Virus record (IMG/VR): IMGVR_UViG_2531839662_000028
Span: 1-19,466 of that record
DNA from: a virus
Taxonomy: Duplodnaviria; Heunggongvirae; Uroviricota; Caudoviricetes
Strand: one strand, 5' to 3'
DNA: 19,466 nt
Below, one piece after another: positions 1 through 15,903 of this stretch; the stretch's first letter is position 1, and each line of letters opens with the position of its first letter. The notes under the pieces are model-generated. The model worked only from the letters and a program-made list of their open reading frames with translations, made no database searches and was not told the origin of the DNA. The position numbers were made by a program, and so were the translations under genes.

Positions 1-510
1 TTATACGGATTTTTTTACATCTTGTGGATCCTGTGAAGGAGCTACAAGATCTTCCTGTTCATGAACGCCATAGATTGACAAAATCTCTTTGCGAGCTTCT
101 GAGGGTAATGTATGTAGCACCAAAGCTGTTTGTAGCGTTTGGCGATCAATGCCCAACATTGCCAATAGGGTATCAGCAGATATAGGGGGGCGTTCATGCA
201 TTAACCCGGAAAGCCCGTATTTAGCCATATTCAGCTCTATTTCCCGGACTTCATTTTCTCCTAATTTATTGATTAATATGGAGAACATCTTCAATGTATC
301 AGCATTCATTTCTTCGATAGACGTTCCCTGCATAGCTGGTATTACCGGGAGATACTCAACCCCAGGCCCACGACGCCCTTCTTGCGAACGCTTAGGCCAT
401 CCTTCTTTCTTCGCTCGTTTGTGCACGCCTTGTATTGTTCCTGGCATTCCGTCCAGTTCAGTAATTTGTTTGGGCGTCATCCACTGGTTTATCTCTCTTG
501 AACTTTTCAT
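1..510 (-). CDS. c: Mu-type immunity repressor (Repc-like), 169 aa
   Basis: Minus-strand ORF with start codon (CAT on +) at 508-510 and stop at 1-3. N-terminus MKS...GMPG..GVH.RA..GW.KR...G..EY matches the Mu repressor DNA-binding domain pattern and visibly parallels the N-terminus of the adjacent transposase. Divergent from ner/A/B as in Mu; AT-rich. Confidence 0.85.
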   Translation of the reverse strand: MKSSREINQWMTPKQITELDGMPGTIQGVHKRAKKEGWPKRSQEGRRGPGVEYLPVIPAMQGTSIEEMNADTLKMFSILINKLGENEVREIELNMAKYGLSGLMHERPPISADTLLAMLGIDRQTLQTALVLHTLPSEARKEILSIYGVHEQEDLVAPSQDPQDVKKSV

Positions 511-541
511 AAACTAAGTTTACCAAAATTATATGTATATA

Positions 542-554
542 AATCAAAGTGTTA
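542..554. promoter_or_regulatory. Candidate IHF-binding site (matches WATCAANNNNTTR)
   Basis: Sequence AATCAAAGTGTTA fits the IHF consensus exactly. In Mu an IHF site lies between operators O1 and O2 in this interval. Consensus match only. Confidence 0.4.
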
Positions 555-618
555 CAAAATAAATCACACCAACTCATATAAACTAGTTGAGTTTATTTGG
601 TTTATGTGACAATGTATA

Positions 619-648
619 AAACAGATAATCAAGACAGATTATCTGTTT
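619..648. promoter_or_regulatory. Perfect 12-bp inverted repeat AAACAGATAATC-(6)-GATTATCTGTTT, candidate operator for a dimeric regulator (Ner or repressor)
   Basis: Read directly from sequence. Lies about 45 bp upstream of the ner start, in the position where Ner/repressor operators lie in Mu-family phages. Confidence 0.5.
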
Positions 649-690
649 TGATAACCCTTTATCATACGCAATATGGTTGATGTGTGAAAG

Positions 691-927
691 ATGAGTAACG
701 ATTGGCATCGGGCTGACGTGATTGCGGCCCTCAAAAAAACAGGAATCCCTCTGGCAAAACTGTCCAGACGTTCAGGTTATTCAACCGGGACACTCGCAAA
801 TGCATTAGTCAGGCCATGGCCCAAAGGTGAACGTATCATTGCTGATGCCTTAAACATGAAACCTGAAGAAATTTGGCCTAGTAGATATCTAAGGGATCAC
901 AATGAGAGAGTGGATATCAGCAATTGA
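691..927 (+). CDS. ner: Ner-like DNA-binding early regulator, 78 aa
   Basis: Small ORF directly downstream of the operator region. Residues [13 protein letters not shown]...TLANAL...WPKGE.IIA.AL...PE.IWPSRY match the Ner family pattern; first gene of the rightward early operon as in Mu. Confidence 0.8.
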
Positions 928-2890
928 GTGTGCGGGTTTATCTGGTTTACCTGGTTCATTAATGGGGATTCACAAAAGGGCACAGAGAGAAGGATGGCTC
1001 AAGAGAAGAAGAGAAGGAATTAAAGGGGTTGCTTATGAATACCATATATCTTCTCTTCCTAACTCTGCCCGAGCTGAGTTTTTGATCCAACAAGGGGGAA
1101 TTGAAACAAGCCTGGGCCGTTTTGAAATCGCCCGCCCCACGCTGGAAGCCCATGATTATGATCGTGAGGCACTGTGGAGCAAATGGGATAACGCCAGCGA
1201 TTCCCAGCGCAGACTTGCTGAAAAATGGTTGCCTGCGGTTCAGGCTGCAGACGAAATGCTGAACCAGGGGATTTCAACGAAAACGGCATTTGCGACCGTT
1301 GCTGGACATTACCAGGTCAGCGCATCCACTTTGCGGGACAAATATTACCAGGTACAGAAGTTTGCGAAGTCTGACTGGGCGGCTGCGCTTGTTGATGGCC
1401 GTGGTGCATCCCGTCGCAACGTTCACAAAAGTGAATTTGACGAGGATGCCTGGCAGTTTCTGATTGCAGATTATCTGCGACCGGAAAAACCCGCCTTTCG
1501 CAAATGTTATGAGCGTCTGGAACTGGCAGCACGTGAGCATGACTGGAATATTCCCTCCCGTGCCACGGCCTTTCGCCGGATTCAGCAACTGGACGAGGCA
1601 ATGGTTGTTGCCTGCCGTGAAGGTGAACATGCACTGATGCATCTGATACCGGCACAGCAACGAACTGTGGAACACCTGGACGCCATGCAGTGGATCAACG
1701 GCGACGGTTATCTGCATAACGTCTTTGTACGCTGGTTTAACGGTGATGTGATCCGCCCGAAAACATGGTTCTGGCAGGATGTGAAAACCCGAAAAATTCT
1801 GGGCTGGCGCTGCGATGTGAGCGAGAACATTGATTCAATTCGCCTCTCGTTCATGGATGTTGTGACTCGCTACGGTATCCCGGAGGATTTTCACATCACC
1901 ATTGATAACACCCGTGGTGCAGCGAATAAATGGCTGACGGGAGGCGCGCCCAATCGTTACCGCTTTAAGGTAAAAGAGGACGATCCAAAGGGACTGTTTT
2001 TACTGATGGGCGCGAAAATGCACTGGACAAGCGTTGTTGCCGGTAAAGGCTGGGGCCAGGCAAAACCTGTTGAACGTGCTTTCGGTGTTGGTGGGCTTGA
2101 GGAATACGTTGATAAGCATCCGGCACTGGCTGGCGCATATACGGGGCCAAATCCGCAGGCAAAACCTGATAACTATGGCGACCGCGCTGTTGATGCAGAG
2201 CTGTTTCTGAAAACCCTTGCCGAAGGTGTGGCGATGTTCAATGCCAGAACAGGCCGTGAAACAGAAATGTGCGGGGGCAAACTCTCGTTTGATGATGTTT
2301 TCGAGCGTGAATACGCCAGAACGATTGTGCGTAAGCCAACCGAAGAACAAAAACGGATGCTGTTACTGCCTGCCGAGGCGGTGAACGTTTCACGCAAAGG
2401 CGAGTTTACGCTTAAAGTTGGCGGCTCCCTTAAAGGCGCGAAAAACGTTTATTACAACATGGCGTTAATGAATGCCGGCGTGAAAAAAGTTGTGGTCAGG
2501 TTTGATCCACAGCAGTTACACAGCACGGTTTATTGTTACACCCTGGACGGTCGGTTTATCTGTGAAGCGGAATGTCTGGCACCTGTTGCATTTAATGATG
2601 CTGCGGCAGGCCGCGAATATCGCCGCCGCCAGAAACAACTGAAATCTGCAACTAAAGCAGCCATTAAGGCGCAGAAACAAATGGACGCACTGGAAGTTGC
2701 TGAACTGCTGCCGCAGATAGCCGAACCAGCAGCGCCAGAATCAAGGGTTGTTGGTATTTTCCGGCCTTCCGGTAACACGGTGCAGGTGAAATACCAGGAA
2801 CCCGATGATGAATATGAAACTGATCGTGATGAATATCTGAATCATTCGCTGGATATTCTGGAACAGAACAGACGTAAAAAAGCCATTTAA
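902..2890 (+). CDS. A: Mu-type DDE transposase A, 662 aa
   Basis: Length and order (c-ner-A-B) as in Mu. N-terminal winged-helix domain resembles the repressor N-terminus. Catalytic triad candidates in Mu-equivalent positions: D268 (codon GAC 1703-1705, INGDGY), D335 (TIDNTRG), E391 (KPVERAF). Start overlaps ner end; AAGGGA lies 7 nt upstream of the ATG. Confidence 0.95.
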
Positions 2891-2928
2891 TTAACGTTTA
2901 AACAAAATTTAATTACGAGGTTATTCAG

Positions 2929-3867
2929 ATGAATATTTCCGATATTCGCGCAGGACTGCGCACGCTTGTAGAAAGTGAAAAAGCGACTTATGCACAAATT
3001 GCACGCGAGTCTGGCGTGGCCGCAGGAACGTTAAGCGCATTCGTGAATAACAAGTACAACGGCGACAATGAACGTGTTGCGCAGACGCTGGAACGCTGGC
3101 TGGAGAACTATCACCGTGCCGCAGAGCTGCCAGAACCACCACGTTTTGTGGAAACCAGAACAGCACGCCAAATCTGGACGAGTATGCGTTTTGCCAGCCT
3201 GACTGAAAGTATTTCTGTTATCTGCGGTAATCCAGGTGTGGGAAAAACTGAAGCGGCCCGCGAATTTCGTCGCACCAATAACAATGTCTGGATGATCACC
3301 ATTACCCCATCCTGTGCCAGTGTTCTGGAATGCCTGACTGAACTGGCTTATGAACTGGGAATGAATGACGCACCACGCCGTAAGGGGCCACTCTCCCGCG
3401 CTTTGAGACGCCGTCTTGAAGGTACGCAGGGGCTGGTCATTATCGACGAAGCTGATCATCTTGGCGCTGAGGTTCTGGAAGAACTCCGCCTGTTACAGGA
3501 GTCCGCCCGTATTGGCCTTGTTCTGATGGGGAATCACCGTGTTTATTCAAACATGACCGGTGGTAACAGAACGGTTGAATTTGCCCGCCTGTTTTCCCGT
3601 ATTGCCAAACGGACGGCAATCAATAAAACCAAAATTGATGATGTAAAAGCCATTGCGGATGCCTGGCAAATTACCGGCGAAAACGAGCGGGAATTATTAC
3701 AGCAGATTGCACAAAAGCCAGGTGCGCTTCGCATCCTGAACCACTCGCTGCGCCTTGCTGCCATGACCGCCCACGGTAAAGGTGAACGTGTTAATGAAGA
3801 TTATCTGCGTCAGGCTTTCCGTGAATTAGACCTCGACGTTGATATTTCAACCCTGCTGCGCACGTAA
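2929..3867 (+). CDS. B: Mu B-type transposition target-DNA activator (AAA+ ATPase), 312 aa
   Basis: 312 aa, immediately downstream of A. Walker A motif GNPGVGKT and a Walker B-like LVIIDEAD are read directly in the translation. Confidence 0.93.
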
Positions 3868-3880
3868 GGAGAGCGAAATC

Positions 3881-4108
3881 ATGATGTCACGGAATATCAA
3901 AATGGCAACGGAAGTAAAGAGCTGGTTACAGGAGCGCGGCAGCCACGTCAACGAATCCTGGCTGGGCGTGGCCCGCCCGGTGCTTGAAATTACCTGCCCG
4001 CCACCGGAGCTGGTCAGAAACGCTGTCAGGATTATGGAGCATAAATCAGGGGTTGCCCGTTCCGTATGGACGGCCCGCCTTAATGGTTGCCAGATTATCT
4101 GGCGTTAA
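3881..4108 (+). CDS. Small early protein in the kil position (Kil-like), 75 aa
   Basis: First ORF after B, as for Mu kil. AGGAG at 3867-3871 precedes the ATG at 3881; the track's longer ORF from 3839 overlaps the B coding end and is less likely. Function assigned by position only. Confidence 0.55.
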
Positions 4109-4140
4109 TAACGGCTTATTTATTTGTGAGGAATAACAAA

Positions 4141-4410
4141 ATGGCAAAAGTAATCTTTGAATTTAACCGCATGGAAGATGTTGAGTTTCAGAAAAAAGGA
4201 GGTTTCTTTGTAGGAATGAGTGTGCAACTGGAAGAACAGTCTCCTAAGGAGCAAACCGGACCGCATGACGTGATGGCAGGCATTATCAAGAGCATGGCTC
4301 CTGAAATTATTGAAAAAGCAACCCAGGAGTTGTTGAAGTCAGCCAGAGAACTTGGGCTGGAAGCCGAAGGCGAGTTATTCCGGTATAACCCGGATGCAGC
4401 CAAACATTAA
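4141..4410 (+). CDS. Hypothetical early protein, 89 aa, acidic
   Basis: ORF with GAGGA-type RBS upstream of the ATG at 4141; the track's longer ORF from 4087 lacks an RBS. Within the semi-essential early block. Confidence 0.55.
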   Translation: MAKVIFEFNRMEDVEFQKKGGFFVGMSVQLEEQSPKEQTGPHDVMAGIIKSMAPEIIEKATQELLKSARELGLEAEGELFRYNPDAAKH

Positions 4411-4427
4411 TTTCAGGGAAGGAGGCA

Positions 4428-4717
4428 TGATGATAATCCCTCGCAAAAGATGGTCACGCGAAGACCGGGAATTTATCGAAGCCAGTGTCGGGAAAATGAC
4501 CGTCGAGGAAATGGCGAAAAAACTGAACGTTGCCCCAACCGCCCTACAGGCACATGCCAGAAGGCACGGAATATCGTTGTGTGCATACCGGGTCAGTGAG
4601 CACGACAAATATTTGTGTCGTGAACTTTATAAAGAAGGGCTGGCTATTCATGTCATTGCCCAAAAGATGGAATTAAGCAATCGTGCTGTATCCAGCATTG
4701 TATACAGCGAATATTAA
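4428..4717 (+). CDS. Hypothetical small protein with helix-turn-helix-like segments, 96 aa
   Basis: GGAAGGAGG RBS at 4417-4425 immediately upstream of the ATG at 4428. Segments MTVEEMAKKLNVAPTALQAHARRHGIS and IHVIAQKMELSNRAV look HTH-like. Confidence 0.55.
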
Positions 4718-4737
4718 TTAACAGGAGCTTTATTTAT

Positions 4738-5262
4738 ATGGCTAAACCAGCAAAACGAATCAAGAGTGCCGCAGCAGCTTATGTTCCGCAATCCCGCGAT
4801 GCCGTGGTGTGTGATATTCGCCGGATTGGTGACCTGCAACGCGAAGCGGCACGACTTGAAACGGAAATGAATGACGCTATCGCTGAAATTACTGAGAAAT
4901 ACGCCTCACAGATTGCGCCCCTTAAAACCAGTATTGAAACCCTTTCAAAAGGCGTTCAGGGATGGTGTGAAGCGAACCGCGACGAACTGACGAACGGCGG
5001 CAAGGTGAAGACGGCGAACCTGGTAACCGGCGATGTGTCATGGCGTCAGCGCCCACCATCGGTAAGTATTCGCGGTGTGGATGCGGTGATGGAAACGCTG
5101 GAGCGTCTTGGCCTGCAACGCTTTATTCGCACGAAACAGGAAATCAACAAGGAAGCGATTTTACTGGAACCGAAAGCAGTCGCAGGTGTCGCCGGAATTA
5201 CAGTTAAATCAGGCATTGAAGATTTTTCTATTATTCCGTTTGAACAGGAAGCCGGTATTTAA
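4738..5262 (+). CDS. gam: Gam-like host-nuclease inhibitor / DNA-end binding protein, 174 aa
   Basis: 174 aa, the Mu Gam length. Translation MAKPAKRIKSAAAAYVPQ...WCEANRDELTNGGKVKTANLVTGDVSWR matches my recollection of Mu Gam. AGGAG at 4721-4725. Confidence 0.88.
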   Translation: MAKPAKRIKSAAAAYVPQSRDAVVCDIRRIGDLQREAARLETEMNDAIAEITEKYASQIAPLKTSIETLSKGVQGWCEANRDELTNGGKVKTANLVTGDVSWRQRPPSVSIRGVDAVMETLERLGLQRFIRTKQEINKEAILLEPKAVAGVAGITVKSGIEDFSIIPFEQEAGI

Positions 5263-5304
5263 TACCACCATTAATATTTAATTAGTTCACTTTCTTTTAA
5301 TTAT

Positions 5305-5334
5305 GGCGCGATGCGTCAGGGGATTGCTCGCGCC
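5305..5334 (+). other. GC-rich hairpin (GGCGCGA / TCGCGCC, 16-nt loop) in the gam-downstream spacer, no T-tract
   Basis: Inverted repeat read directly from sequence in the 98-bp gap. Could be an RNA processing/stability element or protein site; not a canonical intrinsic terminator. Confidence 0.3.
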
Positions 5335-5360
5335 TGAAACAGATTACTGAGGAATAAAAA

Positions 5361-5903
5361 ATGGTTGATGCAAAAGTTCTGAATGGTGTCAGCACATTAT
5401 TACGGGCTTACGGGCGTCTGACCTGCGGGGTTCTGGCTGAAAAAATGAATATGCTGCCCTCGTCAATGGTGTATTTCCTGCGTGATGCGGTTGATGCCGG
5501 AGTTCTCACTGAATGTAACGGATTTTATGACGTTCCGCGCCCTCGTCCAACGCCGCCAGTAAGACGAAACGCAACAACGGAACACCCCGCTGTTGATAAT
5601 GCTCAATGGTGCGCGTTCCGCCGCTCTTTGCCCTGGCTGGAAGGCAATGCCATTCCGGCATTGGCAAAAGAATTTGCGACAGGCGTACTGACCTGCGAGT
5701 CGGTTTACATCGTTGCTGAAGTGGATGACGAGATGTGCAAACAGGGGATGCCCCGTTTTGTGATGGCGTATATCGATATCCGGCTGGGGCGCTTTATTTG
5801 TGGTTCCAGTGGCTGGAATATCACCGACCACGTCATGCGCTATCTCATTCTTGATTATTCACCAGCTCCGGCAGCAACACAGGAAGTCAGTGAACATGAT
5901 TAA
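5361..5903 (+). CDS. Hypothetical early protein, 180 aa
   Basis: ORF with GAGGA RBS (5349-5353) 7 nt upstream of the ATG; enterobacterial-type codon usage; no recognisable catalytic motif. Confidence 0.6.
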   Translation: MVDAKVLNGVSTLLRAYGRLTCGVLAEKMNMLPSSMVYFLRDAVDAGVLTECNGFYDVPRPRPTPPVRRNATTEHPAVDNAQWCAFRRSLPWLEGNAIPALAKEFATGVLTCESVYIVAEVDDEMCKQGMPRFVMAYIDIRLGRFICGSSGWNITDHVMRYLILDYSPAPAATQEVSEHD

Positions 5904-6078
5904 GTCAATTGGCTTTGTCCTGCTGGTTGGCACCTGCGGGAGTGATGCCTGTGATGCTATCCCGGCAACAGAAAAAATCTGGCCCACAGAGCAGGCATGT
6001 ATGCAGGTGATGGAGCGCATACAAAAACGTTATCCCAGTGGAATCTTTTATTGCGAAGAGGTATTACGAAATGAGTAA
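5896..6078 (+). CDS. Small predicted secreted or lipoprotein-like protein with four cysteines, 60 aa
   Basis: Internal ATG at 5896 overlaps the stop of the preceding gene. N-terminus MIKSIGFVLLVGTCGSD resembles a signal peptide with a non-canonical lipobox-like LVGTC. Confidence 0.45.
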   Translation: MIKSIGFVLLVGTCGSDACDAIPATEKIWPTEQACMQVMERIQKRYPSGIFYCEEVLRNE

Positions 6079-6433
6079 GCATATTTATTACGACCCTAAA
6101 TATCGGGCTGAAATGCGGGCGCAACTGGTTGTCAGTGGATATACACCGGAGCAGGCCGATACAACTCTGACAGAACTGATGGGTGAGCTTCCATTTGATG
6201 AAGCTGAATATGAATACTGGCTGAAGCAGTTCAGGCTGGAAATTCTGGAAAACACCACACTGCCATCGCTGATAAGAATAATAAAAAGCGTTATCGACAA
6301 TGCCTGCTACAACGGTGATTGCTTGGCCGCAGCAATTGCGACCCATGCTCTGGTGAATCTGCTGGAGGTTACCGGCGCAGTTTTCCTGAATCCTGAAAAG
6401 GTATTAAGAGATGAAAATACAGATGATTACTGA
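6071..6433 (+). CDS. Hypothetical acidic small protein, 120 aa
   Basis: ATG at 6071 overlaps the preceding stop. AT-rich relative to flanking genes; D+E clearly exceeds K+R. No recognisable motif. Confidence 0.55.
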   Translation: MSKHIYYDPKYRAEMRAQLVVSGYTPEQADTTLTELMGELPFDEAEYEYWLKQFRLEILENTTLPSLIRIIKSVIDNACYNGDCLAAAIATHALVNLLEVTGAVFLNPEKVLRDENTDDY

Positions 6434-6746
6434 TGCTGATTTAATGGCTGCAACCTTAATTTCCAGTGGCATGTCAGAACAAAAGGTAAATGATTTCCTG
6501 GATAATGTCGTATACCAGCACTATGAGCAGGCCAGAGAAAATTTAATTTCAGAAAAGCGCACGATGATTGCTGAATCATTAAGCCCTGCATGGATTATCG
6601 AAGAGTTGCGGGGAATCATTGCCAGTCAGGATAAAGTGGCGGCAGTTGCCGCCCTTGATGTGCTACAGCGAATGAGTAAAGAGCTATTCAACACTGAATT
6701 AATTTTAAAATCCGGGGGACATAATGAATCGCACATCCCTGATTAA
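6411..6746 (+). CDS. Hypothetical acidic small protein, 111 aa
   Basis: ORF overlapping both neighbours by ~23 nt; AT-rich; about 20 acidic versus 10 basic residues. Confidence 0.55.
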   Translation: MKIQMITDADLMAATLISSGMSEQKVNDFLDNVVYQHYEQARENLISEKRTMIAESLSPAWIIEELRGIIASQDKVAAVAALDVLQRMSKELFNTELILKSGGHNESHIPD

Positions 6747-7275
6747 ATTAATTCATGTTGCACGTCGGGAGTTGCAACTTGACGATGACACTTACCGCGC
6801 TTTTCTGGTGCAGTGCACGGGCAAAACCAGTTGTCGCGAGCTGTCCGTTGCACAACTGGAACAAGTGCTCGATGCCATGAAAGAGCGCGGTTTTAAGAAA
6901 CAGAAAAAATATCCCCGCCGTCGTTTTAAGGGGCATGTCACACCACGCGAGAAGATTTACAAAATCTGGCAGCAGATGTTTCTTGACGGTTTCGTCTCCG
7001 ATATCAGCGACGCTGCGCTGGACAAATACGTTGAGCGCCTGACAGCCAGACGTAATGGCGGACAGGGTGTTTCCACGCTGGCATGGTGTCACGGGGAATC
7101 GTTGCAGGTTGTGCTTGAAACGCTCAAACAGTGGCATATGCGCTGCATCCGTGAAGCCTTTGCCCGACATGGTGTGCCTTTACCTGTGAGCGAAACCGGG
7201 CGGGAGCTGCGCGGCTATGATGCACTGACCAGTGCGTATGCCCGCGCACGAAACAGCGGGAGAATTGCTGTATGA
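6724..7275 (+). CDS. gemA: GemA-like gene expression modulator (DUF1018-type), 183 aa
   Basis: 183 aa, directly upstream of and overlapping mor (ATGA overlap) as in Mu. Translation MNRTSLIKLIHVARRELQLDDDTYRAF... fits the GemA family pattern as I recall it. Confidence 0.8.
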   Translation: MNRTSLIKLIHVARRELQLDDDTYRAFLVQCTGKTSCRELSVAQLEQVLDAMKERGFKKQKKYPRRRFKGHVTPREKIYKIWQQMFLDGFVSDISDAALDKYVERLTARRNGGQGVSTLAWCHGESLQVVLETLKQWHMRCIREAFARHGVPLPVSETGRELRGYDALTSAYARARNSGRIAV

Positions 7276-7682
7276 AACAGATGAAAGAGCAGGATTTATT
7301 CGAAGACTTCCGGGACGACAGCGTTCTGGAATATCTTCACGATTATCAGGAAAAATATGTTTACCCGGCGCTACTTTCAGAACTGAATGCTCTGTTGCGA
7401 CAGGAACTGATAAGGCTTGGGGTTAACCCGGTCCATTCCCTTGAGTTGGTAGTGGCGATTTGTAATCATATCGGTGGGATTCAGGTATATGTTCCTAAAG
7501 GGAAAATACTGGAAAATCTTATCAGAGACATGCGCATCTGGCGTGATTTTGATGGGAAAAACGTAGCGGAACTGGTGCAGCGTTACAAAGTGACATACAA
7601 AACGGTATATCAAGCTATCAAAAGAATGCGAAGGCTGGAGCGTGGAAAATATCAAATGCAACTGTTTAAGGATGAGTCATGA
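7272..7682 (+). CDS. mor: Mor/C-family transcription activator (Mor by synteny), 136 aa
   Basis: Acidic N-terminus and C-terminal HTH (...NVAELVQRYKVTYKTVYQAIKRMRR...) typical of Mor/C activators. Position immediately after gemA. Confidence 0.85.
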   Translation: MKQMKEQDLFEDFRDDSVLEYLHDYQEKYVYPALLSELNALLRQELIRLGVNPVHSLELVVAICNHIGGIQVYVPKGKILENLIRDMRIWRDFDGKNVAELVQRYKVTYKTVYQAIKRMRRLERGKYQMQLFKDES

Positions 7683-8158
7683 AATACTTTCCTCTTATAC
7701 TTTTACTGAGCGTATTTTGCGCTAATGCGGCAAAGTTGCCAGCTGAAGATGTCATCAAAAAACGTCTGACAGAAAAAGATCTCATTGCACTAAATAGCTG
7801 GAAGCCTCTTAAGGGAGGCGATTCTATTAAGAACGGTGGAACTGAAACTGCTCACAGCAAATTCGGGGTATTTACGATCAATAATAAAGTCGTCAGCTCA
7901 AGGACGACGGTAAAGGATTTTGAAAACAATCCTTCAGGTGTGTTGTCTTCCTTTGTAGCATGCTCGCGGGTTGCAGAGTCAGCAATTGGTGAACTAACAG
8001 AGAAGCAGCAGAAACGAATTATTGACATGGTAGTTTCAGCTACAAAAGTTGAAGGGTATGGGTTAACTGACGTGATACAGGGTTTTCTCATGCAAACCAA
8101 ATTTCTCAAGATGGGTAACGATATGGTAATAGATTGCTCCATCAAAGGAGATGAGTAG
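7679..8158 (+). CDS. Secreted protein of unknown function, 159 aa (moron-like cargo)
   Basis: N-terminal signal peptide MKYFPLILLLSVFCANAA. Visibly lower GC than flanking genes. ATGA overlap with the mor stop; followed by a strong intrinsic terminator. Confidence 0.7.
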   Translation: MKYFPLILLLSVFCANAAKLPAEDVIKKRLTEKDLIALNSWKPLKGGDSIKNGGTETAHSKFGVFTINNKVVSSRTTVKDFENNPSGVLSSFVACSRVAESAIGELTEKQQKRIIDMVVSATKVEGYGLTDVIQGFLMQTKFLKMGNDMVIDCSIKGDE

Positions 8159-8177
8159 TTATCTTCCCTTAATTCAA

Positions 8178-8203
8178 TGAAGCCGGTAAATCCGGCTTTT
8201 TTT
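8178..8203 (+). terminator. Intrinsic terminator-like hairpin + T7 tract (TGAAGCCGG-TAAAT-CCGGCTTTTTTT), copy 1 of a repeated element
   Basis: 7-bp GC-rich stem, 5-nt loop, seven Ts, 20 nt after the stop of the secreted-protein gene and 56 nt before the endolysin start. Identical 26-mer recurs at 15904-15929. Confidence 0.65.
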
Positions 8204-8258
8204 ATGCCTCCGGCACCATGAAGCAGACCACGTTTAACTCTGCTTCACAGGTGTTTTT

Positions 8259-8846
8259 ATGGAAAATCAAAAATTCTCCCCGGCCTTTGAACATGCGCTG
8301 AATTTTATTCTGCGTCCTGATATCGAAGGCGTTTATGTCAATGACCCCACTGACCGTGGCGGTGAAACCAAATACGGCATTTCTGACCGCCGCGACGGTG
8401 TGATTGACGGCAAAACCGATGTCAGCGGTGACGGCAAACCGGATACCCGCATCAAAGATTTAACCCGCGAACAGGTCGCGCAGATTTACTGGCGCGATTA
8501 CTGGCTGCCTGCCGGATGTGACCAGTGGCCTGATGGCGTGGCGATGTTTGTTTTCGATGCAGCGGTTCAGCATGGCGTTAAAAAAGCCATCAAAATTTTG
8601 CAGGAAGCCACTGATATCAATGCCGATGGCATCATCGGCCCGCGCACCCGCAGGGCCGTGAACCTGGCTGACCAGAACTGGTTGCTGACCCGCTGTATTG
8701 TCCGTCGTTCCCGCTTTTATGCCGAAATCATCAAATCAAAACCCGCCCAGGGCAAATACCTGAACGGCTGGTTTAACCGCATGGAAAAACTGACCGACGC
8801 CTGTCTGGAAATCATCGACAACGCGCCGTCCACCACGCGGGGGTGA
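8259..8846 (+). CDS. Endolysin, GH108-type muramidase with C-terminal peptidoglycan-binding domain, 195 aa
   Basis: N-terminal motif EGVYVNDPTDRGGETKYGI matches the GH108 signature; C-terminal DGIIGPRT resembles the peptidoglycan-binding module. No signal peptide or TM segment. Confidence 0.85.
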   Translation: MENQKFSPAFEHALNFILRPDIEGVYVNDPTDRGGETKYGISDRRDGVIDGKTDVSGDGKPDTRIKDLTREQVAQIYWRDYWLPAGCDQWPDGVAMFVFDAAVQHGVKKAIKILQEATDINADGIIGPRTRRAVNLADQNWLLTRCIVRRSRFYAEIIKSKPAQGKYLNGWFNRMEKLTDACLEIIDNAPSTTRG

Positions 8847-8847
8847 T

Positions 8848-9099
8848 ATGGGCAAAGGCTGGGATGCCTCACTGAAAGCCGGGCGGCGTGACCGCCTGCG
8901 TCAGGAGGTTCTGCACCGCATGGCCGGAGGTCCGTCCCCGAAACCGCTGGACTATACCGGCCATGACGGCACACACGCCAGCTACTACATGCGTGGCTGG
9001 AACTCCGTGGATACACGGGACATTTTCTGGCAGTGCCAGAAGTACAGGGAAAAATTCAATGTGGAAAAAGGTAATGAACAAAATTTTAAAACTGTGTGA
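8848..9099 (+). CDS. Hypothetical basic protein in lysis cassette, 83 aa
   Basis: ATG 2 nt after the endolysin stop; good enterobacterial codon usage (CTG, GCC, AAA) through most of the ORF; no TM segment. Confidence 0.45.
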   Translation: MGKGWDASLKAGRRDRLRQEVLHRMAGGPSPKPLDYTGHDGTHASYYMRGWNSVDTRDIFWQCQKYREKFNVEKGNEQNFKTV

Positions 9100-9484
9100 C
9101 TGGCTGCTTTGTTCCCGACTGATGAGAACCCCATGGCCGCTGGCCGGACTGACACTCTGCATGTTCATCATCAGCATGTTATGTGGCTGGCGATCGTTCG
9201 TGTTGATGTTGTTGTCCTTTGCCGGGGTGGTGTTGTTTTCATACAGCGCAAGCCTCGGGAATGTGCCATTTCGCCTGCTGCCTGAGGTCCGTTACCGGGC
9301 TTTTGGTCGCCACATCATCGTGTGGTCATGGGTGGTCTGGGCGCTGGGATATTTCTGCTGCGTCTTCAGCACGCTGATGATGGTGTCACCGGTGCATCCG
9401 GTGTTCTGGCTGTGTGGTGGCTGTTGCGGCGGTCTGCTCTGTCTTCAGCGTTATCTGTATGGAGGTTTCCCGTGGATCCGTTAA
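9059..9484 (+). CDS. Multi-pass membrane protein (about four TM segments), Cys/Trp-rich; candidate holin, 142 aa
   Basis: Only + frame covering 9100-9470 with host-like codon usage. Hydrophobic segments PWPLAGLTLCMFIISMLCGW, FVLMLLSFAGVVLFSY, IIVWSWVVWALGYFCCVF, VFWLCGGCCGGLLCL. Start at internal ATG 9059 (AGGGA upstream) chosen because the upstream part of the track ORF overlaps the better-supported frame-1 gene. Confidence 0.55.
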   Translation: MWKKVMNKILKLCDWLLCSRLMRTPWPLAGLTLCMFIISMLCGWRSFVLMLLSFAGVVLFSYSASLGNVPFRLLPEVRYRAFGRHIIVWSWVVWALGYFCCVFSTLMMVSPVHPVFWLCGGCCGGLLCLQRYLYGGFPWIR

Positions 9485-10080
9485 CCCTTTCAGGCATCGC
9501 CTCTGTTCTGCTGAAAGCCGGGCCGGGGCTGATTCGTTCCGTCGGGCGCTGGTTTGGTGGCAGTACATCTGCCGCCGCTGACTCGGTGGCCGGTATGGTG
9601 GAAAGCGTCCGGGAAAGCCTTCCCGTTGCTGAACAGCAACGCATTCTGGAACAAAAACTGGTGATGCTGTCACCGGAGCAACTGGTGCAACTGGAAACCC
9701 TGAAAATTCAGCTGCAACAGCTGGAGGTGGAACGGCAGAAGCTGGTGCTGGCTGACCAGCAGGCCGCACACCACGAACAGCAGGAAACCATCCGCAATGG
9801 TGACAACGCCACGGACAGCTATGTGCGCCAGACACGCCCGCTGCTGGCCCGCCTTTCCTGTTACAGCAGTCTGGCCTATGTGCTGTTGCTCTCCTGCGGC
9901 CAGATTGCCGGAGCCATTGCCGGTGCCAGAGGTATCACGCTGCATATGCCATCACCGGACTGGGATATCACGCTGATGTTGCTTACCCCGGCGCTGGGCT
10001 ATCTCGGTGTAAGAACCCTTGACGGCTTTGCCCGTTACAGCAAATCAAGCCGTCACAAAATGTCTGCGGGGCCGAAATGA
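9472..10080 (+). CDS. Membrane-associated coiled-coil protein, lysis-associated candidate (spanin- or holin-like), 202 aa
   Basis: GTG start at 9472 preceded by GGAGG (9462-9466). Hydrophobic N-terminus, Q/E/L-rich coiled-coil middle, C-terminal hydrophobic segments. Confidence 0.5.
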   Translation: MDPLTLSGIASVLLKAGPGLIRSVGRWFGGSTSAAADSVAGMVESVRESLPVAEQQRILEQKLVMLSPEQLVQLETLKIQLQQLEVERQKLVLADQQAAHHEQQETIRNGDNATDSYVRQTRPLLARLSCYSSLAYVLLLSCGQIAGAIAGARGITLHMPSPDWDITLMLLTPALGYLGVRTLDGFARYSKSSRHKMSAGPK

Positions 10081-10304
10081 CCGACGAAATCGATCGCATC
10101 AGTGAAGTGGTTCTGAACGAGCGTCAGAGCGTCGTTAAAGCCTGGCAGACACGGACAAAAGAAACGCCCCACAGCCGGGGCTTCTGCAATGACTGCGGGA
10201 ACGTTATTCCGGCACAGCGCCTTGCGGCGCTGCCGGATGTGGTGACCTGTATTGACTGTCAGCAGATGCGGGAACGCAGGAGGAAAACGTGTCCTGGGAA
10301 ATGA
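10077..10304 (+). CDS. TraR/DksA-family C4 zinc-finger protein, 75 aa
   Basis: CxxC-x16-CxxC arrangement (CNDCGN...CIDCQ) in a ~75-aa protein, characteristic of TraR/DksA-like zinc fingers. ATGA overlap with the preceding gene. Confidence 0.75.
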   Translation: MTDEIDRISEVVLNERQSVVKAWQTRTKETPHSRGFCNDCGNVIPAQRLAALPDVVTCIDCQQMRERRRKTCPGK

Positions 10305-10594
10305 TCAGAGCCAACTGGCCCATTCTGTGGGCATTGCTGATGACAGGAATAAACCTGCTTCAGTTGATTCTGGCAAAGACCTACGTCAAGCGCGAAGAGT
10401 TTGATTTGCTGCGTTCCCGCGTGTCGGTGATGGAAAGCCAGGTACATCAGCTACCTGATCGTGATGAGTTCCACCGCCTGCAACTGGATATCAGCAACCT
10501 GCGGGGAGAAATCAAAGAGCTGGGGCCATCCATCCGCCAGGTATCCCGCATCAGCGATTTGTTATTAGAGAACGAGTTAAAGGAAAAAAATTAA
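10289..10594 (+). CDS. Small membrane-anchored coiled-coil protein (Mu gp25-like by position), 101 aa
   Basis: GTG start at 10289 preceded by AGGAGG (10278-10283). One N-terminal TM segment (WPILWALLMTGINLLQLIL) followed by a coiled coil. Confidence 0.6.
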   Translation: MSWEMIRANWPILWALLMTGINLLQLILAKTYVKREEFDLLRSRVSVMESQVHQLPDRDEFHRLQLDISNLRGEIKELGPSIRQVSRISDLLLENELKEKN

Positions 10595-10887
10595 TGGCGA
10601 TGAAAGAGATCCTCACTGAAGACCGTCGTCTGGTGTTGCTGCGTTCCCTGCTGGATTGTGGCGACAGTGCGAATGAATCCGTGTTGCAGACCTGCCTTCA
10701 GGCCTACGGTCATAAGGTATCCCGTGATGTGGTGCGCACCCAGCTTGCATGGCTGCGCGAGCAGGGGCTGGTTCGTCTGTCTGATGTGGGCGGCTGTTAC
10801 GTGGCTGAAATCACCGGCAGCGGCGAGGATGTGGCAAACGGCCTGTCCAGCGTTCCGGGCGTTAAAAAACCCCGTGCGAGGGACTGA
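10594..10887 (+). CDS. Hypothetical protein, 97 aa
   Basis: ORF with ATG overlapping the preceding TAA; host-like codon usage; part of the co-directional late block before terminase. Confidence 0.6.
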   Translation: MAMKEILTEDRRLVLLRSLLDCGDSANESVLQTCLQAYGHKVSRDVVRTQLAWLREQGLVRLSDVGGCYVAEITGSGEDVANGLSSVPGVKKPRARD

Positions 10888-10889
10888 GC

Positions 10890-11189
10890 ATGGCCCGAAA
10901 ACTGAAGCCGTTAAGTCGCGGAGAACGGGCCGTCGTGCGGCAACTGGCGTACTGCCTTGTGCTGGCAGATATTGAGCAAAACGCCATTGTCCGTGCATAC
11001 GAACAACAGACCGGAAAGCCCTGGAACCCGGATGCACCGGATACCCCCATGAAACGTGCCCTGCGTTCATCACCGGCATGTGCGCGGCTGTGGAAGCTGC
11101 TGGGTAAGGATATCCGCTCCGTTCGCGAAGAAATATACGCCGGTCTGAAAACACCGGGAACTGAAGACGGGGGCCGTCGTGAACCGTAA
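10890..11189 (+). CDS. Hypothetical protein, 99 aa
   Basis: ORF with GAGGGA RBS 8 nt upstream of the ATG; host-like codon usage. Confidence 0.6.
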   Translation: MARKLKPLSRGERAVVRQLAYCLVLADIEQNAIVRAYEQQTGKPWNPDAPDTPMKRALRSSPACARLWKLLGKDIRSVREEIYAGLKTPGTEDGGRREP

Positions 11190-11326
11190 AAAGAATCCGA
11201 TAAGTAAAGCGTCCCGTGATGAACTCCGCCGTCTGGCGCACAACCTGACATGGCGGGAAATCCAGAGCGGCGCACTGAAATCTGCATACGAAAGTTTACA
11301 GCGTAGTGAGCAACAGGAGGGCACAC

Positions 11327-11908
11327 ATGGAAAATGAACAACGCCCCACCCGTGGCCGTCTTTCCAAAGTGGATTTACTCCCGGACAGCATCCGGGAGCA
11401 GTTGCATCAGATGCTGCGGGAAAAGCGGCACACGCAGGAAGAAATCCGCGAAGCCATCAACGCCCTGATTGACGAACACAACCTGCCGGAAGAGATGCAG
11501 TTAAGCCGGACGGGCTTAAACCGCTATGCCATCCGCATGGAAAAAGTCGGGGCAAAAATCCGTGCCTCCCGCGAAATGGCCGAAGTCTGGGCGGCAAAGC
11601 TGGGTTCCGCGCCGACGTCAGACGTCGGCAAACTGCTGATGGAGTTTGTAAAAACGCTGGCTTTTGAAACGTCCATGTCGATGGCAGAAGACGACAAGCC
11701 CGTTGCACCGAAGGCGCTGGGGCAACTGGCGCTGGTTGCCCAGCGTCTGGAAGCGGCAGCCATGACCAGCCATAAACGCGAGAAAGCGATCCGTGATGCG
11801 TTTGCGCAGGAGATGGCAGAGAAAACCGAAGAACTGGTCAGAACGGGCGGTCTGTCAGGCGGTGCGGCTGACACCATCAAACGAGACATTCTGGGGATTA
11901 GCGTATGA
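11327..11908 (+). CDS. Terminase small subunit-like protein (Mu gp27 position), 193 aa
   Basis: Immediately upstream of and overlapping the large terminase. AGGAGG at 11315-11320 supports the ATG at 11327 rather than the track's upstream start at 11306 (GTG). Confidence 0.65.
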   Translation: MENEQRPTRGRLSKVDLLPDSIREQLHQMLREKRHTQEEIREAINALIDEHNLPEEMQLSRTGLNRYAIRMEKVGAKIRASREMAEVWAAKLGSAPTSDVGKLLMEFVKTLAFETSMSMAEDDKPVAPKALGQLALVAQRLEAAAMTSHKREKAIRDAFAQEMAEKTEELVRTGGLSGGAADTIKRDILGISV

Positions 11909-13440
11909 CACAAATGGATACGTTCAGTGAATATGATGTTCTGCTGCCGTATCAGAAACGCTGGGTGGCGGATGATGCCGACCTGAAAATTGCCGAGAAA
12001 TCCCGCCGTACCGGTTTAACCTGGGCGGAAGCGGCGGATGCGGCACTGACGGCATCACTGAAGAAGGAAGACGGCGGGCGCGATCACTTTTATATCGGTT
12101 CGAATAAGGAGATGGCCCGCGAATTTATCGACGCCGTGGCGATGTGGGCGAAAGCGTTTAATGCGGCAGCGGAAGAAATCTGCGAGGAAGTGATCACCGA
12201 CGAAGACAAGGACATTCTGACGTTCGTCGTGTACTTCGCCAGCGGTTTTAAGGTCAAGGCATTGTCCAGCAACCCGAGCAACATTCGCGGGATGCAGGGG
12301 AATGTCACCATCGACGAGGCCGCGTTCCATGAAAAACTGGACGAGCTGCTGAAGGCTGTGCTGCCGCTGAAAACATGGGGCGGCAAAATTCGCCTTATTT
12401 CCACCCATGACGGCGTGGACAACCTGTTTAACCAGCTGATTCAGGAAAGCCGCGCGGGCAAAAAAGATTACAGCATTCACACCATCACGCTGGATGACGC
12501 CTGCAATGACGGGCTGTACCGGCGTATCTGTCAGGTGCGCGGCATGGTGTGGTCACCGGAAGCCGAAGCGGAATGGAAAGAAGGTCTGCTGCGAAATACC
12601 GCCACCCGCGAAGACGCACTGGAAGAATATTACTGCGTCCCGAAAAACGGCGGCGGCACGTATATCCCCCGCTCACTGCGTGAACGTGCGGCCCGTGGCA
12701 CCGGGAAAGTGTTGCGCTTTACCGGCACACCGGAATTTAACGCACTGACGGAAAGCCAGCGCCGGGCAGATATCCGGGAATGGCTGGAAACAGTGGTGCG
12801 CCCTGAACTGGAAAAACTCCCGAAGAACCTGCGCCACTGTCTGGGGGAAGACTTTGCGCGTTCGGGTGACCTGACCGTACTGGCCCCGGTGACGGTGAAC
12901 GATGACACCACCCGCGAGGTGCCGTTTCTGGTTGAGCTTGGCAATGTGCCGTTTAAACAGCAGGAGCAGGTGCTGTTCTGGCTTTGCGATCGTCTGCCCC
13001 GCCGTGACGGCATCAAAATGGATGCGCGGGGGAATGGTCAGTATCTGGCAGAACAGGCGGCGGAGCGGTACGGCGACGAAGTGGAACAGGTGATGCTGTC
13101 CGTGGCGTTCTACCGCGAAAACATGCCCCGTTTCCGTGCGGCGTTTGAAGATGATGAGCTGATCCTTCCGAAGCATGAAGACGTGATCAATGACCTCGGG
13201 GCCATTCAGTTACTGCGTGGCGTTCCCGGCATTGATGATTCACGAACCCGTGGCAGCGACGGTCACAAACGTCACGGCGACGCCGCTGTGGCCATTTTCC
13301 TGGGCTTCCTGGCCAGCAAGGATGACTGCCACCGTTACGAACTGCACCGCCTGAACCGCCCGGCGAAACCGGAAGAACGCAACGCGCGCCGCCAGATGAA
13401 GCTGACGCGCGGCCTGAAAAATGAGGGAGGTTTACTGTGA
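11905..13440 (+). CDS. Terminase large subunit (Mu gp28-like), 511 aa
   Basis: 511-aa protein between small terminase and portal; overall resemblance to Mu-like large terminases; ATGA overlap with the upstream gene. Confidence 0.88.
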   Translation: MTQMDTFSEYDVLLPYQKRWVADDADLKIAEKSRRTGLTWAEAADAALTASLKKEDGGRDHFYIGSNKEMAREFIDAVAMWAKAFNAAAEEICEEVITDEDKDILTFVVYFASGFKVKALSSNPSNIRGMQGNVTIDEAAFHEKLDELLKAVLPLKTWGGKIRLISTHDGVDNLFNQLIQESRAGKKDYSIHTITLDDACNDGLYRRICQVRGMVWSPEAEAEWKEGLLRNTATREDALEEYYCVPKNGGGTYIPRSLRERAARGTGKVLRFTGTPEFNALTESQRRADIREWLETVVRPELEKLPKNLRHCLGEDFARSGDLTVLAPVTVNDDTTREVPFLVELGNVPFKQQEQVLFWLCDRLPRRDGIKMDARGNGQYLAEQAAERYGDEVEQVMLSVAFYRENMPRFRAAFEDDELILPKHEDVINDLGAIQLLRGVPGIDDSRTRGSDGHKRHGDAAVAIFLGFLASKDDCHRYELHRLNRPAKPEERNARRQMKLTRGLKNEGGLL

Positions 13441-15008
13441 ACCTGAAACAACTGGCCGGGGCCGTTCGCCGTCTGCTGAACCCGGCAACCGGTGAGGAAG
13501 ACACACTGAAAAAAGAGGCGCTCAACGAAGCACAGGCCCGTCCGCGTCATGCCGGTGTGCGTTCGGCCTCGCCGGGTATCAGCGTCGCCTCCGGGCTGAA
13601 CCCCGGCAGGCTGGCAGGCATTCTGCGCAATGCCGCCGACGGCATCACACGTGATTTTTTTATCCTTGCTGAAGAGATGGAAGAACGCGATTTGCATTAC
13701 GCCTCGGTGCTGCGCACCCGCAAGCTGACGGTGGCGGGTATCGAACCGGTGGTGGTGGCCGCCAGTGATGACGATGCTGACGTGCAACTGGCGGACGCCA
13801 TCCGTGCGCTGATGGAAGCCCCGCAAATCCCTGAGCTGATGTTTGATTTGCTCGACGGGCTGGGAAAAGGCGTGGCGGTCTGTGAAATCCTGTGGGACAC
13901 CCGCAACAACCACTGGATGCCCCGTGATTATGAATGGGTTGATCCCCGTTTTCTGAAAGCCGAAAAACCCACGCTGCACCAGTTCCGCCTGCTGACTGAC
14001 GATGAACCGGTGGATGGCGTACCGCTGACACCGGGAAAATTCATTGTTCACCAGCCGCGCCTGAAATCCGGTCTGCCGTTGCGTAACGGTCTGGCCCGTC
14101 TGGTGGCGGTGATGTACATGCTGAAATCCTTTACCGTGCGCGACTGGTGGGCATTCGCGGAAAAATTTGGCATTCCGGTCACGGTGGGGAAATACGGTCC
14201 CAACGCCACGGAGGAGCAAATCCGCGTACTGATTGATGCGATTGCCTCCATTGCCTCGGATGCCGGGTGTGCCATTCCGCAGTCCATGCAACTGGAAATG
14301 AAGGAAACCGCCAGCAGGAATAACGGCGGCGCACTGTTCCGTGAAATGGCGGAATGGTGTGATGCACAAATCAGTAAGGCTGTGCTGGGGCAGACCATGA
14401 CCACGGATAACGGCAGTTCGCGTTCACAGGCGGACGTGCACAATCAGGTGCGCATGGACATTGTGCGCTGGGACGCGCGGCAGCTGGCTAACACGCTGAA
14501 TGAATATCTGGTACGCCCCTACATTGAGGCCAACTACGGGCCACAGGCGCACTACCCCCGTGTTGTTCTGCGTATCAGTGAAGCGGAAGATTTGAAGGCG
14601 CTGACAGACGCTCTGGTGCCACTGATTGACCGGGGGATGCGGGTTCAGGAATCGGAGCTGCGGGACCGGTTCGGCCTGGCTGAACCGGACGACGGGGCTG
14701 ATGTTCTGCATCCGGTGTCTGCCGGAATGTCAGGTGATATGGCGATGAACCGCGAGCGCGTCGCCCTGAACCGTGAACACCCCGATGAACTGGCACAGAT
14801 GGTGGATGATGCCCTGCGTGACTGGCAGAAAACCGGCGAGGCGTTCACGAACCCGGTGCTGACACTGGCGCAGGAATGCGACAGTTTTGATGACTTTCTG
14901 AAACGTCTGCCTGAGCTTCAGGAAACGCTGAACGCGGACGACTTTGCCCTGCAACTGGCGGAGGTGTGCTTTAAGGCGCGTGTGCTGGGGGACACTGCTC
15001 ATGCGTGA
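13437..15008 (+). CDS. H: Portal protein (Mu gp29/H-like, DUF935-type), 523 aa
   Basis: 523-aa protein following terminase. GTG start at 13437 preceded by GAGGGAGG (13423-13430), overlapping the terminase stop. Confidence 0.85.
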   Translation: MNLKQLAGAVRRLLNPATGEEDTLKKEALNEAQARPRHAGVRSASPGISVASGLNPGRLAGILRNAADGITRDFFILAEEMEERDLHYASVLRTRKLTVAGIEPVVVAASDDDADVQLADAIRALMEAPQIPELMFDLLDGLGKGVAVCEILWDTRNNHWMPRDYEWVDPRFLKAEKPTLHQFRLLTDDEPVDGVPLTPGKFIVHQPRLKSGLPLRNGLARLVAVMYMLKSFTVRDWWAFAEKFGIPVTVGKYGPNATEEQIRVLIDAIASIASDAGCAIPQSMQLEMKETASRNNGGALFREMAEWCDAQISKAVLGQTMTTDNGSSRSQADVHNQVRMDIVRWDARQLANTLNEYLVRPYIEANYGPQAHYPRVVLRISEAEDLKALTDALVPLIDRGMRVQESELRDRFGLAEPDDGADVLHPVSAGMSGDMAMNRERVALNREHPDELAQMVDDALRDWQKTGEAFTNPVLTLAQECDSFDDFLKRLPELQETLNADDFALQLAEVCFKARVLGDTAHA

Positions 15009-15765
15009 AACTCTCATCCCGAAAGAGGCGCTGGCGTGGCTGAAGGCGAAGAAGCTGCGCCCCGGTTTTGATTACCGGGATGTATGGCGGGAAGAGCACC
15101 GGAACAGCTTCACCGTGGCAAAAATGCTGCAACTGGATTTGTTGTCGGATGTGAAAGCCCTTGTGGAAGACGCCCTGCAAAGCGGGCAGACGTTCAGCGA
15201 GTTCCGGGAGGCGCTGCAACCGCTGCTGATAAAACGCGGATGGTGGGGCGTTCAGGAGATGGATGATCCGCTGACGGGCGAAAGGCGCACCGTGCAACTG
15301 GGCAGCGACCGCCGCCTCCGCACGATTTTTGATACCAACATGCGCACCGCCCGCGCGGCGGGCCAGTGGGAACGCATTCAGCGGACAAAGCGGGCCATGC
15401 CGTATCTGATTTACGAGCTGGGACCATCCCGCGAGCACCGGGCGGAGCATGTGAAATGGGCGCGTCTGTGTCTGCCGGTAGATCATCCGTTCTGGCAGAC
15501 GCATTTCGCCCCTAACGGCTGGGGCTGCAAATGCACCATCCGTCAGGTCAGCCGTGGTGAATATGCGCAACTGGCGGCACAGGGCACCATTCACACCGAA
15601 GCGCCGGAAATCAGAACTGTCCGCTGGGTGAACAAACGCACGGGCGAAGAGGAAGAGGTGCCGGAAGGGATTGATCCGGGCTGGAACTACAATCCCGGTA
15701 TAAACCGTGAGCAGGAGCTGGTGCGCCAGCTGGCGACAAAACAGGCCCGTTTTGACAGTGAGTAA
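15001..15765 (+). CDS. F: Head morphogenesis protein, Mu F-like (shorter than Mu F), 254 aa
   Basis: Position directly after portal; start taken at ATG 15001 overlapping the portal stop. Family assignment rests mainly on synteny and is tentative. Confidence 0.65.
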   Translation: MRETLIPKEALAWLKAKKLRPGFDYRDVWREEHRNSFTVAKMLQLDLLSDVKALVEDALQSGQTFSEFREALQPLLIKRGWWGVQEMDDPLTGERRTVQLGSDRRLRTIFDTNMRTARAAGQWERIQRTKRAMPYLIYELGPSREHRAEHVKWARLCLPVDHPFWQTHFAPNGWGCKCTIRQVSRGEYAQLAAQGTIHTEAPEIRTVRWVNKRTGEEEEVPEGIDPGWNYNPGINREQELVRQLATKQARFDSE

Positions 15766-15788
15766 CCCTCCCGCCGTAAATCCCCCTG

Positions 15789-15812
15789 AAACGCATCAGA
15801 AACGCGTTTTTT
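15789..15812 (+). terminator. Intrinsic terminator candidate after F (AAACGC-atcagaaac-GCGTTT followed by T-run)
   Basis: 6-bp stem, 9-nt loop, then TTTTTT, about 25 nt after the F stop; overlaps a larger imperfect palindrome TCAGAA...TTCTGA. Confidence 0.5.
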
Positions 15813-15840
15813 ATTCTGATGGCGTGAATGTGCATTCTGA

Positions 15841-15882
15841 CGTTTTTGAAGATGCTGTGGCGTTTTTGAAGGGGTTTTGAAG
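15841..15882 (+). repeat. Three direct repeats of GTTTTTGAAG-like motif (CGTTTTTGAAG x2 spaced 20 bp, then GTTTTGAAG)
   Basis: Read directly from sequence, in the F-I intergenic region between two terminator-like hairpins; the 20-bp phasing of the first two copies suggests a protein-binding array. Confidence 0.4.
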
Positions 15883-15903
15883 GGGGTATTTCCCCGTTTT
15901 CAG

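Follow-up and report, generated by a model that had tools for sequence, protein, structure and literature searches.

ORF159, an open reading frame (ORF) of 159 codons that directly follows the transcription activator gene mor in IMG/VR virus record IMGVR_UViG_2531839662_000028, is the subject of this analysis; the whole stretch examined, positions 1 to 19,466 of that record (19,466 nucleotides [nt]), is referred to below as the window. The window is a Mu-like prophage with the gene order c, ner, A, B, small ORFs, gam, small ORFs, gemA, mor, ORF159, GH108 endolysin, and head genes. Very probably, ORF159 is a genuine Mu-like accessory gene that forms the last, mor-coupled cistron of the early operon, is ended by the early terminator/Mor operator of the phage, and encodes a Sec-exported, probably disulfide-bonded, soluble 15.5 kDa periplasmic protein of phrog_38744, in a fixed yet plastic slot between mor and the promoter Pm that is empty or holds the 159-residue type, a distant 165-residue type, or an unrelated membrane protein. 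The product is an uncharacterized accessory protein and ordinary in kind, in that ORF159 is a phage accessory gene at a plastic slot.

ORF159 is coupled to mor and precedes a Mu-type early terminator

As the first-pass annotation of this DNA had proposed, a 159-residue ORF is present at 7679 to 8158, running from an ATG at 7679 to a TAG at 8156 to 8158. Its start codon and the mor stop codon TGA (7680–7682) share the sequence ATGA (7679–7682), and the 4-nt overlap described in that annotation is therefore confirmed. Translation of ORF159 is coupled to that of mor, and the gene closes the early operon as its last cistron; a search for a sigma-70–like promoter over positions 6500 to 9500 found none.

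ORF159 is followed by a hairpin at 8179 to 8199, which consists of an 8-bp stem and a 5-nt loop (−12.6 kcal/mol, z −4.4) and then seven T residues (T7). In phage Mu, the sequence AAGCCGGTTAATCCGGCTT followed by T7 starts ≈8 nt past the mor stop codon and is annotated both as a terminator and as part of Pm; the window carries AAGCCGGTAAATCCGGCTT followed by T7 3′ of ORF159, at the place matching the Mu element, and the two dyads are identical in 17 of 19 bases. The dyad to which Mor binds lies at −51 to −36 in Pm (PMC4287176, PMC4390567). The corresponding 25-nt element (GAAGCCGGTAAATCCGGCTTTTTTT; Table 1) is unchanged in the related loci L004 to L007 and L012 to L030. By this homology, the hairpin appears to be the phage's own conserved Mu-type early terminator and Mor operator and not a sequence imported with ORF159. 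The match to Mu Pm therefore places ORF159 between mor and Pm, and a Mor-dependent promoter 3′ of ORF159 is predicted to drive the endolysin gene lys. The strong intrinsic terminator noted in the first-pass annotation is thus real as a hairpin and T tract, but it is the Mu-type early terminator and not one belonging to ORF159 itself; a terminator that arrived as part of an imported moron is ruled out by the same identity. Of the early or middle transcript suggested there, only the early one stands, since ORF159 precedes Pm.

A second, identical copy of GAAGCCGGTAAATCCGGCTTTTTTT is found at 15905 to 15929, upstream of a protease/scaffold gene (15979), where zero copies are expected by chance, and the window yielded no second gene of the Mor/C family. 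Together, the repeated 25-nt element and the lack of a second Mor/C gene raise the possibility that Mor is a direct activator of the lysis and head operons, which in the lineage of the window may be activated without the C step that Mu uses.

The slot between mor and Pm is polymorphic among close relatives

To place ORF159 in the context of related prophages, we compared the mor/Pm junction among 19 IMG/VR contigs whose Mor is 80 to 99% identical to that of the window. The slot holds the 159-residue type in three of these, a 165-residue secreted type in five, and nothing in the remaining 11, in which mor ends 6 nt before the dyad. A similar picture emerges from 5,426 complete Escherichia coli genomes, which harbor the 159-residue type (24 genomes, many of which look clonal), the 165-residue type (nine), and the empty slot (14). 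No slot gene is found after mor in Mu, D108, SfMu, or Yersinia phage vB_YpM_5. ORF159 appears to be dispensable, because it is absent from these four phages, from 11 of the 19 IMG/VR relatives, and from 14 E. coli genomes. The first-pass annotation had named conservation at this position in all Mu-like phages as evidence that would count against its reading; comparison of the junction reveals many empty slots instead.

The boundaries of the exchanged segment are sharp. In E. coli RM9088 and ETEC1732, the prophage flanks are near-identical to the window up to ≈50 nt into ORF159 and again from just before the hairpin, and an unalignable 165-residue secreted protein replaces the part coding for the mature protein; the left recombination boundary between the two cassette types thus lies inside the signal-peptide coding part. 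An empty-slot relative, L022, is 95 to 100% identical to the window across gemA and the initial 60 nt of mor (to ≈7335), falls to 70 to 80% over the rest of mor, lacks ORF159, and is again 100% identical from ≈8172.

A further occupant is found in Klebsiella phage Kp4866-3 (OK490420.1, L038 1447–1779), where the slot holds an unrelated 110-residue protein with three predicted transmembrane (TM) segments; its gene has a GC content of 0.32, overlaps mor in a GTGA, and matches phrog_36430, which has no annotated function. This three-TM protein is the reason for our view that the slot would collect envelope-directed accessory proteins. In vB_YpM_5 (L003 2536–4464), a GH108-type protein directly follows Pm, and a gp18-like gene, a C gene, and a Mu-type lysozyme are also present; this phage thus carries two peptidoglycan hydrolases.

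Low GC content is a standing property of the slot genes

ORF159 has the lowest GC content in the window, at 0.410 (0.40 at third codon positions). The first-pass annotation had described it as visibly more AT-rich than the flanking genes, which holds relative to lys (0.537) but not relative to mor (0.428), which is nearly equal; another early gene reaches 0.411, and the mean values are 0.489 for the early region and 0.573 for the late region. The 3′ four-fifths of mor, from ≈7340, falls within the same divergent low-GC block as ORF159 (Table 1). The GC content of the slot gene lies below that of its flanks in all 12 contexts compared, by 0.04 to 0.21, and the contrast is strong in L006 (0.36 versus 0.53 and 0.62). 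Low GC is thus a standing property of slot genes and not a sign of recent arrival, and the 12 of 12 contexts led us to reject recent acquisition as its cause.

Low GC and presence/absence polymorphism are both features that would suit a classic moron-type factor made in the lysogen, which might serve lysogenic conversion or fitness, for example, in colonization, serum or bile resistance, or colicin resistance. The hosts of ORF159-type prophages include enterotoxigenic E. coli (ETEC) and Shiga toxin–producing E. coli (STEC) strains of livestock and human origin, which fits such a role, as does one distant family member, P0015 (L036 4001–4477). P0015 lies at the early-operon/lys junction but on the opposite strand and is closed by a 12-bp bidirectional terminator, an arrangement that implies, from gene layout, independent transcription there. 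We nonetheless regard a conversion factor as quite improbable for ORF159. The gene is codirectional and tightly coupled with mor in the window and in eight of nine distant relatives, no promoter-like site was found over the region searched, and the product has no similarity to known virulence or resistance proteins. The Mu-type early operon is controlled by the repressor; ORF159 would sit on the early transcript, an arrangement in which a repressed lysogen would not be expected to express it. This placement on the early rather than the middle transcript weakens the conversion reading.

ORF159 belongs to a sparse, divergent, and position-fixed family under purifying selection

A word-indexed search for relatives of the ORF159 protein retrieved only six clusters sharing 73 to 97% identity, and an exhaustive profile hidden Markov model search of 1.84 billion representatives brought the number to 11 in all, including proteins of 150 to 169 residues at 20 to 32% identity. 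ORF159 matches phrog_38744 (no annotated function) with an E value of 3.3e-111 over residues 1 to 159 of 159, and all 16 aligned family members match the same group. No match to the ORF159 protein was obtained in Pfam, NCBIfam, PADLOC, or PDB sequence searches; none of the 16 aligned members matches Pfam, and members other than that of the window show chance-level matches only to the PADLOC defense models. A tblastn search of 50,697 phage records with ORF159, the distant member P0009, and the 165-residue type returned zero matches.

The genomic contexts of the nine distant representatives, all of which were inspected, place every one of them in a Mu-like prophage at the early-operon/lysis junction. 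Eight directly follow mor on the same strand and are themselves followed by a hairpin terminator and then a lysis enzyme, which is GH108 where the contig reaches that far, except in L034. There, a Peptidase_M15_4/VanY-type enzyme (L034 5594–6019) replaces GH108 as the first gene after the slot. As judged from these contexts, in which relatives of 20 to 25% identity hold this junction in divergent Mu-like prophages, the family appears to be sparse, highly divergent, confined to prophages, old, and position-fixed rather than a one-off import.

The 165-residue type is probably related to the ORF159 family, but very remotely. In an hhalign comparison of the two, the probability is 81% across the 60 columns at the N terminus; when the alignment threshold is relaxed, it is 87.6% for the full length. 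The relaxed alignment brings both cysteines into register, and part of the score derives from the signal peptide. Members of the 165-residue type match phrog_28288 and, weakly, phrog_38744, and the relationship is best described as suggestive.

The ratio of nonsynonymous to synonymous substitution rates (dN/dS) of ORF159 is 0.14 relative to an 80%-identical allele (dS 0.77) and 0.03 relative to a 98%-identical allele. ORF159 is thus a real functional gene under purifying selection, and pervasive positive selection between close alleles was rejected on these values. At longer range, the slot proteins retain only 25 to 27% identity where Mor retains 66 to 67% and the endolysin 64 to 66%, a disparity that would mean either much faster divergence of the slot protein or repeated allele replacement.

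These findings bear on whether ORF159 is a spurious ORF or a decaying, functionless remnant, for which one could cite its rarity in databases and its lack of an annotated family or function. We consider this extremely improbable: the dN/dS values of 0.03 to 0.14 are obtained at dS up to 0.77, the ORF is full length and conserved in 24 complete genomes, a proline, a tryptophan, and two cysteines are invariant in the family, the structural model described below is confident, and the gene has a good Shine–Dalgarno sequence and start codon.

The product is predicted to be a soluble periplasmic protein with a cysteine pair

The N-terminal sequence of the ORF159 protein, MKYFPLILLLSVFCANA followed by AKLP, harbors one positive charge (K2), a 13-residue hydrophobic run, and an A-x-A cleavage site (ANA|A). 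These features were assessed by our own rule-based check of the n, h, and c regions and are found both in ORF159 and in 21 of 21 relatives examined, in agreement with the clear signal peptide reported in the first-pass annotation. The mature part carries exactly two cysteines in all 21 relatives, and P21, W41, C95, and C153 are invariant across the family. We infer from these features that the ORF159 product is exported to the periplasm by the Sec pathway and signal peptidase I, and that C95 and C153 probably form a disulfide bond in the mature protein. A lipoprotein was considered and rejected, since C14 is not conserved, being Ser in P0004 and P0005, and its SVFC context is atypical for a lipobox.

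A 16-sequence alignment, which replaced a seven-sequence one that had given a poor model (predicted local distance difference test [pLDDT] 54), yielded an AF2 model with a pLDDT of 85.3 and a predicted template modeling score of 0.79. The model has a helix at the N terminus, followed by a three-stranded meander; next come two helices, with C95 in the first, and then another three-stranded meander, with C153. Foldseek searches of PDB and BFVD returned no significant match to this model. The predicted fold looks like a generic α/β sandwich of the PAS/PDC-like kind, and no solved structure is closely related to it; the PAS/PDC-like sensor domains of SrrB (7jl6) and CzcS (5gpo) and the PAS-like domain of TraJ (4ew7) are retrieved with weak scores and cover about half of the ORF159 protein. 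PAS/PDC sensors are receptor domains, whereas the ORF159 product would be a free soluble protein, and no ligand-binding motif was identified in it.

An alternative function is envelope-directed host takeover or counter-defense, in which an early, soluble, PAS/PDC-like protein binds a periplasmic component of the host, for example, a sensor-kinase domain or an envelope enzyme, and blunts an envelope stress or defense response during lytic growth. The coupling of ORF159 to mor within the early operon is in keeping with this, as is the great divergence of the family, which is expected if the protein tracks a variable partner. Set against these points are the lack of a significant Foldseek match, the lack of any known periplasmic defense target, and the absence of PADLOC or anti-defense matches, and we judge this explanation unlikely.

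A periplasmic product encoded directly upstream of the lysis cassette, the position of the slot gene in all contexts examined, might also be a lysis accessory, for example, one that inhibits or times the adjacent peptidoglycan hydrolase or that disrupts the outer membrane. This we hold to be very unlikely, because a terminator and a promoter separate ORF159 from the lysis genes and would give it earlier expression, because close relatives with the same GH108 endolysin dispense with the slot gene, and because the L034 member adjoins Peptidase_M15_4 rather than GH108. The ORF159 protein has neither a lipobox nor a TM segment, on which grounds a spanin or a holin was rejected, and an endolysin inhibitor was likewise rejected in that ORF159 is dispensable and its family occurs irrespective of which endolysin is present. 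The lysozyme inhibitors Ivy, MliC/PliC, PliG, and PliI are absent from the structural and sequence matches.

A possible role in exclusion of competing phages

A role at the level of the envelope in inter-phage competition during lytic growth is possible, and we put it forward tentatively. In such a scheme, the ORF159 product would be made as soon as infection or induction switches on the early operon and would be exported into the periplasm, where it would bind an envelope-located target; binding would then shield the committed cell from competing or superinfecting phages, following the logic of T4 Spackle and P1 Sim. Exclusion offers the best fit because it accommodates at once the coupling to mor, the predicted periplasmic location and cysteine pair, the dispensability, the divergence with cassette exchange, and the fact that the slot also accepts a membrane protein. 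Fixed-slot accessory genes of phages have repeatedly proved to be exclusion, anti-defense, or conversion factors. Two considerations weigh against exclusion: temperate phages usually express their exclusion genes in the lysogen, whereas ORF159 appears to be tied to the repressed early operon, and close alleles are under purifying rather than diversifying selection.

A more speculative extension, which we regard as improbable, is that the mor/Pm junction of GH108-type Mu-like prophages is a dedicated slot for envelope warfare. Its main occupants would be secreted, disulfide-bonded, PAS/PDC-like proteins of an undescribed family, and each allele would neutralize a periplasmic target of its own, for example, a rival phage's entry machinery or an envelope sensor or defense of the host. 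If true, this would explain why alleles are exchanged in the manner of cassettes and why they diverge so extremely at one fixed position; the slot for anti-CRISPR genes in Mu-like phages of Pseudomonas provides an analogue.

Whichever function applies, the slot is sharply bounded, by the mor stop codon on the left and the Mor operator/terminator on the right, and takes at least four states among close relatives, with occupants that all appear to be envelope-targeted. The four states (empty, type 1, type 2, and membrane protein) provide a ready comparative and genetic system for the early periplasmic acts of Mu-like phages, and a phenotype for the ORF159 family, with no annotated function and no close structural relative, would be new biology.

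Features of the junction and the host element

The coordinates of the junction are collected in Table 1. The window is closely related to a prophage of E. coli UMNF18, a porcine ETEC strain, with 99.16% identity over window positions 1 to 17870 and 100% identity over 6700 to 9200. The UMNF18 prophage is apparently truncated past the major head gene (compare window 17870–19466), where a tail-sheath pseudogene is annotated, and its left end (L001 1332–1961) adjoins a truncated zinc-binding dehydrogenase gene beside yphB, an arrangement that fits Mu-type transposition into a host gene. Downstream of the slot and 3′ of a gp18-like gene, the window encodes at 9074 to 9484 a hydrophobic, Cys- and Trp-rich protein of 136 residues with ≈4 predicted TM segments, which may be the counterpart of Mu gp19; this stretch shows a strong T bias, with an AT skew of ≈−0.5 over 9151 to 9600. 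An Rfam scan of the window matched zero RNA families.

Table 1. Features of the mor/Pm junction, in window coordinates
Feature	Position	Strand	Basis and remarks
mor, Mor-family transcription activator	7272..7682	+	Pfam PF08765, E 1.6e-29; GC 0.428
Mosaic low-GC block (most of mor and ORF159)	7340..8172	+	Sliding identity versus empty-slot relative L022; GC profile
Shine–Dalgarno sequence of ORF159, AAGGA	7668..7672	+	Within the 3′ end of mor, with the ATG 6 nt downstream; read from sequence
Sec signal peptide coding part, MKYFPLILLLSVFCANA	7679..7729	+	Predicted cleavage after ANA
Mature periplasmic protein (predicted) and stop codon	7730..8158	+	142 residues, 15.5 kDa, isoelectric point 8.6; phrog_38744 member
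Early-operon intrinsic terminator and putative Mor-binding dyad of Pm, GAAGCCGGTAAATCCGGCTTTTTTT	8179..8203	+	Homology with Mu Pm; right boundary of the cassette
GH108 and PG_binding_3 endolysin (lys), first gene 3′ of the slot	8259..8846	+	PF05838, 9.6e-24; PF09374, 8.6e-18

Comparison with known systems

The junction of the window resembles that of Mu in the succession of gemA and mor and then the dyad/terminator, with a gp18-like gene and a four-TM gp19-like gene downstream. In Mu, the dyad lies within ≈8 nt of mor with no gene between, and Pm drives gp18 to gp20 and C; the window differs in having a gene before the dyad and, as the next gene beyond the dyad, the GH108 endolysin, and it yielded no C gene.

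The description of ORF159 as a classic moron applies in part. It is an extra gene between genes that are adjacent in related phages, and it is an optional, low-GC accessory gene of the exported type, the composition of which departs from that of lys but little from that of mor. It lacks its own promoter and terminator, the inverted L036 copy being the exception in the family, and it belongs to an old, position-fixed family. Regions of genomic plasticity that are low in GC and fixed in position occur in Mu-like phages (PMC4378225), and ORF159 shares with morons and with these regions the form of a single accessory ORF at a fixed position, with low GC and presence/absence variation among close relatives. 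Unlike morons, ORF159 rides the early operon by coupling and uses the early terminator/Mor operator of the phage, and the family that occupies the slot is old.

Among known superinfection-exclusion proteins (T4 Sp/Imm, P1 Sim, HK97 gp15, and Cor/Llp), none shows sequence or fold homology to the ORF159 protein, and the resemblance lies in the arrangement. P1 Sim, which a temperate phage uses for exclusion, is processed and exported. The ORF159 product would resemble it as a soluble, exported temperate-phage protein that could block DNA entry after adsorption; it differs in having no detectable homology to Sim, which is the larger protein and is made in lysogens. T4 Spackle is a superinfection-exclusion protein that is made early and resides in the periplasm (PMC7677548), and, like Spackle, the ORF159 product is predicted to be small, soluble, signal-peptide bearing, encoded on an early transcript, and dispensable. 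The two are unrelated in sequence and fold: Spackle is helical, comprises ≈75 residues in its mature form, and targets the gp5 tail lysozyme, whereas the ORF159 protein has a predicted α/β fold of 142 residues. Finally, a Mu-like Pseudomonas phage has early-region accessory genes with exclusion activity (PMC9936078).
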